A stretch of DNA of 64,000 nucleotides from Lactobacillaceae bacterium UBA5807 (lineage in GTDB: Bacteria > Bacillota > Bacilli > Lactobacillales > Lactobacillaceae), in contig DIDF01000056.1 in assembly GCA_002418005.1 (NCBI GenBank), positions 4,174 through 68,173 on the forward strand, given 5' to 3'. Of the stretch, positions 4,116-7,249 are shown in pieces (within the stretch, counting starts at the first letter, position 1; the number at the start of each line of letters is the position of its first letter). The notes below the pieces were generated by a model. It was not told where the DNA came from, made no database searches, and saw only the letters and a program-made list of their open reading frames with translations. Made by a program: the position numbers and the translations under genes.

Positions 4116-4760
4116 ATGCCAAAAGCAATTACTGTTGAACAATCACGGGCACTCGATGACAAGACAATTCACACAATCGGAATCCCTTCCATGGTTCTCA
4201 TGGAACGGGCAGCCCTAAAGATCTATGAAAACATGCTAGCCAATCCTGATTTGGATCTGAGCCGAATTTTAGTATTAGCTGGCGGCGGGAATAATGGTGG
4301 TGACGCTTTGGTTGTCGCCCGATTATTTTACACTCACGGTTATGACGTCAGCATTTTAAATGTGGGCAATCCCGCTCATGCAAGTGAGGACCACAAAGCG
4401 CAAACAAAAATTTGTGAATACTATAAGATTCCAACCATTAAGATGGAAGATAATTTTGATGATTTCACCACAATTGTTGATGGTTTGTTTGGAAGTGGCC
4501 TTTCGAGAAACGTTGAAGGTGACTATGCTAAAGTTATCGACAAAGCAAATGCTTCAACCGCTAATATTCATGCCATTGACATCCCTTCCGGATTGAATGG
4601 TGACACCGGTGAAGTTATGGGAACCGCAATTAAAGCAACCAGCACCTCAACTATCGCCTACGCAAAAACTGGCATGGTCCAAGAAAAAGCCAGACCTTAC
4701 ACCGGTAAAATTTTTGTTGATGACATTGGCATTTACGAAGGCGACCAAGCTGAAAGTTAA
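4116..4760 (+). CDS. nnrE: NAD(P)H-hydrate epimerase (stand-alone YjeF N domain)
   Basis: Motifs LMERAA, GGGNNGGD, IVDGLFGSG and AIDIPSG. Confidence 0.9.
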   Translation: MPKAITVEQSRALDDKTIHTIGIPSMVLMERAALKIYENMLANPDLDLSRILVLAGGGNNGGDALVVARLFYTHGYDVSILNVGNPAHASEDHKAQTKICEYYKIPTIKMEDNFDDFTTIVDGLFGSGLSRNVEGDYAKVIDKANASTANIHAIDIPSGLNGDTGEVMGTAIKATSTSTIAYAKTGMVQEKARPYTGKIFVDDIGIYEGDQAES

Positions 4761-4780
4761 TTCATCTAGGAGGCCGTTTA

Positions 4781-5347
4781 ATGGCAGAAGATAAAAAGAA
4801 CCAAGGATACATCGACGTTCATGATGTCGATCCAGATATTATTGTGGACTTAAAATATGCTTCAAGTGACAACTTCACTCACCAAGTGATTTACGATTTT
4901 AAGAAGGCAATTTCCCGTAAAGATACCGTTAAAAAATTAGGCGAAGCCAGCAAAGCCCTTAAAAAACAAGGATATCGAATTAAAATTTGGGACGCTTATC
5001 GCCCGGTTTATGCGCAAAAACGGCTATTCGAAGTTTATCCCGACCCAATGTGGGTTGCCCAACCTGATCCAAATTACAGTCACGAAAAAGGAGTTACTTT
5101 TGATTTAACTCTTACTGATCTGGACGGAAACGATGTTGAGATGCCCACTGGATTTGACGATTTTACTGGAAAAGCCAAACGCAATGAATATAATAACTGG
5201 ACCCCAACAGCTCAAAAACATTATGATATTTTAAACGAAACAATGAAAAAAGCCGGCTTTAAAGGCTACGAAAATGAATGGTGGGACTTTCAAGACACTA
5301 ATTCTGGTGAATTCGGGCCACTTGAAGTCGATCCAAAAGATTACTAG
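4781..5347 (+). CDS. ddpX: D-alanyl-D-alanine dipeptidase (VanX/DdpX, peptidase M15D)
   Basis: Motifs DLKYASSDNF, WDAYRP, SHEKGVTFD, MPTGFDDF and EWWD. Confidence 0.88.
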   Translation: MAEDKKNQGYIDVHDVDPDIIVDLKYASSDNFTHQVIYDFKKAISRKDTVKKLGEASKALKKQGYRIKIWDAYRPVYAQKRLFEVYPDPMWVAQPDPNYSHEKGVTFDLTLTDLDGNDVEMPTGFDDFTGKAKRNEYNNWTPTAQKHYDILNETMKKAGFKGYENEWWDFQDTNSGEFGPLEVDPKDY

Positions 5348-5368
5348 AAATTTGTAGGAGATTTAAAG

Positions 5369-7249
5369 ATGAAGATAGCGATAATCGGGGCCGGACCCCG
5401 CGGAATGATTCTGACTTCGCAAATTATCAATCAATTTAAGGCAAATACAAATAAAAGTAAACCTGTCGACATTACAATTTTCGACCCGCATGGCGTCAGC
5501 GGTCATGTTTGGCGAAGAGAGCAATGGGCAGGTTTGGTAATGAATACGCCCGTTGATCAAATTACTTTATTCACAGATATGACTGTGACCAGGACCAGTC
5601 CCGCTTTTGATGGCCCTTCTCTTTTTGAATGGCTGGGAAGTGCTGAAGCTGCAGATTATTTGAAGAAAAATGATTACAGCCAAAATCTAATTGATTTTGC
5701 TAAAAATATTCAATCAAGTGATTATTCTCCCCGAGTTCTTTATGGGGCTTATATTAAATGGTTTTATGAAGAATTAGTTAAACAGTTACCTTATAATTTA
5801 ACGGTTAAGTTAGAAACTAAAGAAATTATCCAAATTAGCCAAAATGCTGATCATATCATTAATTTAGCCACCTCTGACGATACCTATCAATTTGATAGGG
5901 CCGTTATCAGTCCAGGCCAACAAGATAATTATCAAAACGCAGAAGAACAAAAATTATCTTCATACGCGCAAGAAAACAATATCTTTTATTTACCACCAAC
6001 TCATCCGGGCGATGCAAATCTAAATGATTTACCGGCCGGTGAAACGGTCTTGATTCGTGGCTTGGGGTTAAGCTTTTTTGACTATGTTTCTGAATTGACC
6101 TTAGGACGCGGTGGCAGCTACCTTGATAATGGTGATGGAACGTTATTTTATCAACCTTCCGGCCGAGAGCCAAAAATCGTTGCCGGCTCAAGAAGAGGTA
6201 TGCCATATTACCCAAAGGCAAAAAGTCAAAAGGGTTACGGCGAACTGGCCAAACCTTACTTTTTAACTGATAAAAATATGGATAAGCAATTAACTGATGG
6301 CAAATTACCCTATGATGAGTTTATGATTCTTCTTCATTTGGATATCGAGCTGGTCTACTATGAACTGTTAATTAATGACCGCTATCCCAAATTGTCCGCA
6401 ACTAAATTTAGGCAAAGATTCATTAATGCTTCGGATCGCGAGGCATTGGTTCAATCTTATCGTTTCCAAGAAGAGGACATTTTTGATTGGAATTATGTCA
6501 TTAGTCCATTCAGAGATATAAAAGCAATTGCAACTCAAGACTATCAAGAAGTGTTAGTTCAATGGTTGGACAAACAGACTTCGGATGCCAATAAGGGTTC
6601 AAAAACCGGCCCGTTGTCTTCCGCCCTTGAACTTCTTCGAGATTTTAGAGTAGTTCTGCGAAAAATGATACATGACCATCGTTTTTCAAATGAAGATTAT
6701 GTCAATAAATTCTTGAAGGATTTTAAACGCTTATATAGCTTTTTGGCAGTAGGGGCGCCAGCAATGAGAACCGCCCAACTTTCAGCCTTGATTCGAAGTG
6801 GAATTGTTACCATTATGGCTCCAGGAATGGAAGTTAAGGGAGAGGATGGTTGGTTCAAAGCTGGATCTCCTGCTTCAAATACTGAACCATTTAGATCCAG
6901 AGCTCTGCTAGAAGCAAGAGTCCCAGCACCAGACATTAACATTACTTCAAACCCAATTTTGGAAAGCCTATTAAGTAACCGATTGGCCCGCCCACGACAA
7001 ATTGAAGTGGACGGCAAAGAGCAAAATCTGAGTTCAGTCGAAGTGGACCCTGAAACCGATCAACTAATTGATGCTCGCGGAATGAAGAATAAAGAGATCT
7101 TCGTTTGGGGCTTACCACTTGAAGGATTAAGATTCCAAACAAGTGCTAGTCCAAGACCAGGAGTCAATGATATGAGTCTGCAGACAGCAGATAAGATCGC
7201 GGCAATGCTTTTGCGCCTTCCAAGCGCGGATGTGTGGGATATGACTTGA
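5369..7249 (+). CDS. FAD/NAD(P)-binding flavoprotein, CreE/FzmM-like N-monooxygenase family
   Basis: IIGAGPRG FAD motif, VWR..Q...LVMNT, GPSLFEW, RGLGLSFFD second Rossmann motif, PSGREP..AGSRRG, LEARVP, WGLPLEG and RPGV. Confidence 0.75.
   Translation: MKIAIIGAGPRGMILTSQIINQFKANTNKSKPVDITIFDPHGVSGHVWRREQWAGLVMNTPVDQITLFTDMTVTRTSPAFDGPSLFEWLGSAEAADYLKKNDYSQNLIDFAKNIQSSDYSPRVLYGAYIKWFYEELVKQLPYNLTVKLETKEIIQISQNADHIINLATSDDTYQFDRAVISPGQQDNYQNAEEQKLSSYAQENNIFYLPPTHPGDANLNDLPAGETVLIRGLGLSFFDYVSELTLGRGGSYLDNGDGTLFYQPSGREPKIVAGSRRGMPYYPKAKSQKGYGELAKPYFLTDKNMDKQLTDGKLPYDEFMILLHLDIELVYYELLINDRYPKLSATKFRQRFINASDREALVQSYRFQEEDIFDWNYVISPFRDIKAIATQDYQEVLVQWLDKQTSDANKGSKTGPLSSALELLRDFRVVLRKMIHDHRFSNEDYVNKFLKDFKRLYSFLAVGAPAMRTAQLSALIRSGIVTIMAPGMEVKGEDGWFKAGSPASNTEPFRSRALLEARVPAPDINITSNPILESLLSNRLARPRQIEVDGKEQNLSSVEVDPETDQLIDARGMKNKEIFVWGLPLEGLRFQTSASPRPGVNDMSLQTADKIAAMLLRLPSADVWDMT

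Follow-up and report, generated by a model that had tools for sequence, protein, structure and literature searches.

To our knowledge, FzmM/CreE enzymes are known only for opening the routes to fungal 3-nitropropionate and to N-N bond natural products that depend on nitrite, and the locus described here raises the question of what such an enzyme does in a lactic acid bacterium (LAB). The locus lies in a stretch of 64,000 nt of contig DIDF01000056.1 (GCA_002418005.1), which is referred to as the window and to whose positions all coordinates refer. Three same-strand open reading frames (ORFs) occupy positions 4116-7249, are separated by intergenic gaps of 20 and 21 nt, and are each preceded by a Shine-Dalgarno sequence:

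4116-4760, plus strand: nnrE, which encodes a stand-alone NAD(P)HX epimerase (YjeF_N) and opens the three-gene unit; 214 amino acids (aa); PF03853, 146.5 bits; TIGR00197, 146 bits against a cutoff of 88.6
4781-5347, plus strand: VanX/DdpX-type M15 D-Ala-D-Ala dipeptidase gene; 188 aa; PF01427 (Peptidase_M15), 110 bits against a threshold of 27
5369-7249, plus strand: FzmM/CreE-fold class B flavoprotein monooxygenase homologue of a Lactobacillaceae/Enterococcus subfamily; 626 aa; PF13454 (NAD_binding_9), 107.7 bits against a gathering threshold of 21.8

The original prediction for this DNA, made from the sequence alone, placed the flavoprotein gene of a lactic acid bacterium behind NAD(P)HX epimerase and D-Ala-D-Ala dipeptidase genes with gaps of about 20 nt, and the profile matches and gap lengths agree with it; the closest named homologues are from Lentilactobacillus (52-60% identity). 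It further regarded the 626-aa protein as a CreE/FzmM homologue that possibly oxidizes L-aspartate. Judged by its sequence, the protein is a true relative of FzmM, but it is not orthologous to the aspartate enzymes.

The relationship to FzmM is supported by both sequence and fold. In a phmmer comparison with the FzmM-type L-aspartate N-hydroxylase of Streptomyces sp. V2 (PDB accession number 8CP2; Rotilio et al. 2023, PMC10404684), residues 2-617 of the query align with residues 4-598 at an E value of 3e-86, a sequence match that is far beyond chance. Eleven CreE/FzmM motifs had been listed, and all of them are present in the stated order: GAGPRG (7-12), VWR..Q..L.MNT (47-60), GPSL.EW (82-88), R..YG.Y..W (122-131), RGLGL.FFD (230-238), GRGG (246-249), PSGREP..AGSRRG.PY (263-280), GPL..AL..LRD (414-425), EAR.P (515-519), G.P.E (581-585), and RPGV (596-599). 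In the full-length HMMER alignment, each motif aligns to identical residues of 8CP2. The AlphaFold2 model, built from a 75-sequence alignment, has a mean predicted local distance difference test score of 95.9 and a predicted template modelling (TM) score of 0.94, and its top Foldseek match in the PDB is 8CP2 (TM = 0.89/0.93, root mean square deviation = 2.4 Å, 30% identity). Together, phmmer, AlphaFold2, and Foldseek place the full-length three-domain fold of FzmM in the 626-aa protein, which has the same length as the Streptomyces enzyme (8CP2/8CP5) and shares its flavin adenine dinucleotide (FAD), NADP, and inserted helical substrate domains. The next structural matches are SidA, PvdA, DesB, DfoA, Baeyer-Villiger monooxygenases, and flavin-containing monooxygenases, with TM scores of about 0.3-0.6. 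The siderophore-type class B N-hydroxylases (SidA, PvdA, DfoA, DesB, and KtzI), which are among these next-best matches, share the core of two dinucleotide-binding domains and the NADPH/FAD/O2 chemistry, whereas their identity is only about 11-12% (TM = 0.4-0.6) and they are approximately 200 residues shorter, with a small, unrelated substrate domain (Foldseek; PMC10404684). Because the best structural match is 8CP2, the protein does not fall in an unrelated flavoprotein clade, which the original prediction had named as the outcome that would count against it. The domain-level likeness is already carried by database names ("HpyO/Asp monooxygenase CreE-like FAD/NAD(P)-binding domain"), and no study of the LAB/Enterococcus subfamily emerged from a literature search on FzmM, aspartate N-hydroxylase, COG4529, YdhS, and PF13454. 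An E. faecalis "NAD_binding_9" protein, which may be the orthologue, is given as less abundant under bile in one proteomics table, and no weight is placed on it here. This leaves a widespread uncharacterized enzyme and its association with NnrE.

An exhaustive search of 1.84 billion representatives returned 1843 relatives, of which 527 have E values of 1e-30 or lower. In a FastTree phylogeny of 130 full-length representatives, the 626-aa protein belongs to a clade of 50 with 100% support, in which the named members are from Lactobacillaceae and Enterococcus and no protein carries the Asp signature. Proteins with this signature, including an Amycolatopsis protein (611 bits against 8CP2) and a fungal protein from Apiospora, are found outside the clade. 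Since the tree was obtained by one quick method and is unrooted, only the separateness of the clade is claimed, not a sister lineage.

The active site was compared with that of the Streptomyces enzyme, in which W51 stacks on the flavin and N62 is located over C4a, the L-Asp in the entry chamber is bound by R13, R276, N413, R416, and R577, and sulfates beside the flavin are bound by R266, R409, R412, N413, and R416 (PMC10404684). The full-length HMMER alignment gives the following correspondence (8CP2 residue, residue of the 626-aa protein, and, where counted, occurrence among the 50 clade representatives):

R13, R11: R in 48 of 50
W51, W48: W in 50 of 50
N62, N59: N in 49 of 50
R266, K283: K or R in 48 of 50
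R276, L293: 16 residue types, with R in only 4 of 50
R409, R424: R or K in 46 of 50
R412, R427: R in 44 of 50
N413, V428: 13 residue types, of which D is commonest (18 of 50), with N in 5 of 50 and E in 2 of 50
R416, R431: R in 43 of 50
V571, a tunnel residue, Q590
R577, R596

By this alignment, the features of a class B flavoprotein monooxygenase are present, i.e., GAGPRG, RGLGLSFFD at 230-238, N59 over the flavin C4a, and W48 stacking on the flavin, and conservation of these features extends to 49-50 of the 50 clade representatives. The L-Asp ligand set is incomplete: three of the five ligands are kept (R11, R431, and R596), and two are replaced (L293 and V428), so that the substrate-binding residues speak against an aspartate enzyme. 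As R276 and N413 are not only replaced in the 626-aa protein but hypervariable in its clade, a substrate other than L-Asp is indicated. On the other hand, K288, D425, R427, and R431 are invariant in an alignment of 20 LAB sequences.

A non-circular control was made with 80 genome loci chosen by similarity alone, without regard to the signature residues. N413 is found in 50 of 50 and R276 in 48 of 50 of the actinobacterial-type loci (49 actinobacterial loci and one Tepidiphilus locus), whereas R276 and N413 occur together in none of the LAB/Enterococcus loci. The Tepidiphilus locus (L124) belongs to Tepidiphilus succinatimandens, whose betaproteobacterial homologue (33% identity) has the full Asp-binding signature typical of the actinobacterial enzymes; the distant lyase query described below gave no match within 6 kb of it.

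The genomic partner of the aspartate enzymes is likewise missing. An adenylosuccinate-lyase-type gene starts just 3' of the monooxygenase gene in at least 27 of 49 actinobacterial loci, which is a lower bound because the lyase query was distant, and the same query found no lyase within 6 kb in any of 31 LAB/Enterococcus loci. No nitrosuccinate lyase was found in the host genome (87% complete), in which the best NF052556 score is 169 bits against a cutoff of 650. This best match is an unassigned ASL/CMLE-like lyase at 14654-16039 on the minus strand, 7.4 kb downstream of the flavoprotein gene, and it was considered as a CreD-type partner. This candidate was rejected because the lyase occurs in only 9 of 301 family genomes, including genera without the flavoprotein. 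It is patchy across genera and scores far below the cutoffs of all models (ASL/CMLE/XcbD-like). As the original prediction had stated, there is no biosynthetic cluster here; annotation of the neighbours in the window revealed no natural-product cluster near the flavoprotein gene. The residues R276 and N413 of 8CP2, combined with lyase adjacency, offer a simple test by which true Asp enzymes can be told from the rest.

Other PF13454 relatives carry the same monooxygenase module (27-33% identity) in fused form, as monooxygenase-Lyase_1, nitronate monooxygenase (NMO)-monooxygenase, and MutE-monooxygenase proteins, and their partners, i.e., adenylosuccinate-lyase-type lyase, nitronate monooxygenase, and methylaspartate mutase E chain, point to nitro-acid and dicarboxylic amino-acid chemistry. 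In contrast, the LAB protein stands alone and none of these partner domains is nearby. Five relatives (P0172, P0174, P0188, P0236, and P0260) were observed in which the module is fused to a nitronate monooxygenase, methylaspartate mutase E chain, or aconitase small-subunit domain; such fusions appear to tie the wider family to the same chemistry in the manner of Rosetta-stone links.

The distribution of the gene also differs from that of FzmM/CreE genes. It is present as a single copy in about half of the sampled Lactobacillaceae genomes (158 of 301) and in 27 of 42 genera, nearly all-or-none per genus, with in-frame stops in a few copies; several sampled genera gave no copy (0 of 13 each). 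In an order-level sample, it is present in only two of nine families (15 of 39 and 25 of 40 genomes), and the second Lactobacillales family besides Lactobacillaceae, with 25 of 40 genomes, has Enterococcus as its named members. The named carriers are Lentilactobacillus, Lacticaseibacillus, Apilactobacillus, Fructilactobacillus, Furfurilactobacillus, Secundilactobacillus, Paucilactobacillus, Pediococcus, Weissella, Periweissella, Leuconostoc, and Enterococcus. The single-copy, nearly all-or-none occurrence points to a conserved housekeeping-type role rather than to secondary metabolism, and the pattern is characteristic of an old gene with vertical inheritance and occasional loss, not of a mobile biosynthetic gene. 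A large uncharacterized subfamily separate from the Asp enzymes is defined. Its carriers include food and probiotic genera (Lacticaseibacillus, Leuconostoc, Weissella, Pediococcus, and Lentilactobacillus), and the result argues against annotating these genes as nitrite or nitro-toxin producers, a point of relevance to food-safety annotation.

To describe the gene neighbourhood, ORFs were called in 55 loci with 8-kb flanks and their products were clustered. The original prediction had pointed to an nnrE-ddpX operon; the link to nnrE proved to be wider than supposed, and that to ddpX was limited to two genera. The dipeptidase gene immediately precedes the flavoprotein gene in 13 of the 14 loci of the same genus and in one other genus, and in 11 of these 14 loci it separates nnrE from the flavoprotein gene. 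The middle gene is a clear member of the M15 dipeptidase family by its profile match, whereas its exact DdpX/VanX orthology is not clear, as it scores below the equivalog cutoffs (NCBIfam PRK10178, 141.9 against 176; VanX model, 68 against 320). In Lentilactobacillus, the flavoprotein gene is probably cotranscribed with nnrE and the dipeptidase gene. In seven genera, nnrE directly adjoins the flavoprotein gene on the same strand, and two gene orders occur: nnrE lies upstream in Lentilactobacillus, Weissella (g18, 13 of 13 genomes), Periweissella (g20, 5 of 5), and others, where the assignments of g18 and g20 are inferred from named loci, and downstream in Furfurilactobacillus. The flavoprotein gene occurs without any NnrE in several genera (g5, i.e., Pediococcus, and g11, g23, g25, and g29), and NnrE occurs without the flavoprotein in two (g15 and g21). 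The Enterococcus-type loci also lack NnrE and have the order 5-formyltetrahydrofolate cyclo-ligase, rhomboid, YqgQ, glucokinase (glcK), rhodanese, DUF488, flavoprotein gene, and galKETR; this neighbourhood was considered as a clue to function, and nothing was gained from it or from the literature on DUF488. An aldo-keto reductase gene is a tight neighbour in one genus. Rex, PerR, and cre operator sites were sought in the 300 nt upstream of the 55 loci, and nothing was found above the background mismatch level. As the neighbourhood is not constant across genera, the context gives no substrate. The pairing of nnrE with the flavoprotein gene is a further unexplained association of NnrE, recurrent and testable at the bench.

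A small acidic protein of 112 aa is encoded at 2773-3111 on the minus strand and has no Pfam or NCBIfam match. Its homologues are divergently oriented upstream of nnrE or the flavoprotein gene in 18 of 41 Lactobacillaceae loci, in several genera.

In the explanation that we prefer, giving it an even chance, the 626-aa protein functions as a single-component class B flavoprotein monooxygenase with the FzmM/CreE fold, acts on a non-Asp, probably anionic substrate, and represents a distinct subfamily that is inherited vertically within Lactobacillaceae and a second Lactobacillales family. Strong selection acts on the cofactor sites and on the catalytic Asn and Trp, which makes it very likely that the protein is an active flavoenzyme dependent on NAD(P)H and O2. 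L-Asp and sulfates sit on the arginines beside the flavin in the Streptomyces enzyme (PMC10404684), and the partial retention of this cluster favors a real, probably anionic substrate; the conserved arginines argue that an anion-binding site beside the flavin is under selection. If the mechanism resembles that of 8CP2, the RGLGLSFFD Rossmann site would bind NAD(P)H for the reduction of FAD at GAGPRG, and O2 would then form a C4a-hydroperoxyflavin that stacks on W48 and is protected by N59 and by NADP+, which stays bound. From this intermediate, the distal oxygen would be transferred to a nucleophilic nitrogen (or other heteroatom) of a small, probably anionic substrate, which may be held by the residual arginine cluster of R11, K283, R424, R427, R431, and R596. 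The alternative wording in the original prediction, of an uncharacterized N-oxygenase or NADPH oxidase that perhaps acts on another substrate, fits these data, whereas its aspartate, nitro-acid, and nitrite part is not supported.

Three observations weigh against this explanation. The substrate domain is the least conserved in the clade, with a mean pairwise identity of 0.28 compared with values of 0.33 and 0.42 for the FAD and NADP domains, respectively, whereas all three domains of the Asp-type enzymes are at 0.46-0.48; a search for clade-specific conserved residues that could mark a replacement pocket found none in this domain; and the gene neighbourhood varies among genera, as described above. 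The first two resemble a relaxed or absent substrate site and favor the main rival, a physiological H2O2-forming NAD(P)H oxidase in which the hydroperoxyflavin decays and O2 serves to reoxidize NADPH in enterococci and in aerotolerant, largely heterofermentative LAB. Heterofermentative LAB profit from external electron acceptors, and heterofermenters are among the carriers (Lentilactobacillus, Weissella, Leuconostoc, Apilactobacillus, Fructilactobacillus, and Furfurilactobacillus). The frequent tight neighbours are NAD(P)H related, i.e., NnrE and, in one genus, the aldo-keto reductase. In the Streptomyces enzyme, the N413E mutation abolishes Asp hydroxylation while the intrinsic NADPH oxidase side activity remains intact (PMC10404684), and the N413 position is D or E in 20 of the 50 clade representatives. 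This oxidase role is nevertheless doubtful, if clearly possible: the residues corresponding to R412 and R416 are highly conserved, as is the LRDxRxxxR helix, and a pure oxidase has no obvious need for them; LAB already have dedicated Nox enzymes; and the gene is not found in several of the sampled genera.

It is quite unlikely that the protein acts jointly with NnrE, whether on pyridine nucleotides that are damaged or unusual (such as NAD(P)HX and its cyclic form) or in the proposed vitamin B6-linked second function of NnrE. Such a role would explain the same-strand adjacency in seven genera; the nnrE at 4116-4760 is the sole YjeF_N gene of the host genome, in which a stand-alone NnrD/Carb_kinase gene is found on another contig, unlinked to nnrE; and the arginine cluster could bind phosphates. 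A second function of NnrE has been argued from its clustering with alr and pdxJ and from metabolomics (Niehaus et al., PMC5938422). However, the flavoprotein gene occurs without NnrE in several genera and NnrE without the flavoprotein in two, the Enterococcus-type loci from glcK-rhodanese-DUF488 to galKETR are without NnrE, and shared ancestry could account for part of the adjacency. There is only a slim prospect that the conserved pairing of nnrE with the flavoprotein gene is the sign of a new NAD(P)H-centered damage-control or vitamin B6-linked function, with the FzmM-fold enzyme as the missing partner that would explain the stand-alone NnrE apart from NnrD in many LAB; if true, this function would bear on the proposed "moonlighting" role of NnrE/NAXE.

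Least probable of all is the lead of the original prediction, by which the protein would be an L-aspartate N-hydroxylase of primary metabolism with nitrosuccinate, nitrite, or 3-nitropropionate as its product: although the closest solved structure and the only characterized relatives are Asp N-hydroxylases, three of the five Asp ligands are present, and a lyase with a weak nitrosuccinate-lyase match is located 7.4 kb away, the nitrite or nitro-acid idea is largely excluded by the position outside the Asp-signature lineages in the unrooted tree, the loss of R276 and N413 in contrast to their retention in the actinobacterial-type loci, and the failure to find a nitrosuccinate lyase in the genome (87% complete) or any lyase within 6 kb in the 31 loci.

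The remaining features around the three-gene unit are as follows:

3882-3921, plus strand: hairpin and T-run (aagcctaa...ttaggctt, then ttttt) 3' of the upstream DJ-1/PfpI gene, read from the sequence and missed by a consensus scan
7255-7366, no strand assigned: palindromic intergenic repeat element of about 112 nt with perfect 14-nt outer arms, directly 3' of the flavoprotein stop codon
7404-7459, no strand assigned: hairpin (inverted repeat) with 19-nt arms and A/T runs on both sides, beyond which lies a convergent gene at 7499-7978 on the minus strand
14344-19548, minus strand: five-gene run of asparaginase (18574-19548), 408-aa protein (17388-18614), lipoate-protein ligase (16036-17127), the ASL/CMLE-like lyase (14654-16039), and GcvH-like protein (14344-14652)

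The hairpin at 3882-3921 is the probable 5' boundary of the unit, and that at 7404-7459 is a probable bidirectional terminator common to the flavoprotein gene and the convergent gene. At least three further contigs of the genome carry copies of the 7255-7366 element with 76-84% identity, and the element is probably a small repeat similar to repetitive extragenic palindromes or miniature inverted-repeat transposable elements (REP/MITE-like). In the five-gene run, the 408-aa protein has no NCBIfam match.

The other neighbours encode a glycoside hydrolase family 3 (GH3) glycosidase, DJ-1, an LVIS_2131-family protein, a choloylglycine-hydrolase-type protein, a Cof-type haloacid dehalogenase (HAD), and an energy-coupling factor (ECF) transporter controlled by a thiamine pyrophosphate (TPP) riboswitch. 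The choloylglycine-hydrolase-family ORF at 8844-9593 on the plus strand encodes 249 aa that cover profile positions 1-236 of 316, whereas homologues in related loci have 313-374 aa, and the ORF is possibly truncated or frameshifted. The TPP riboswitch at 10726-10821 on the plus strand (64.6 bits) is located upstream of the ECF-type transporter genes at 10919-13612 on the same strand, which encode an ABC_cobalt S-component, a duplicated ATPase, and CbiQ and probably form a thiamine-precursor uptake system.

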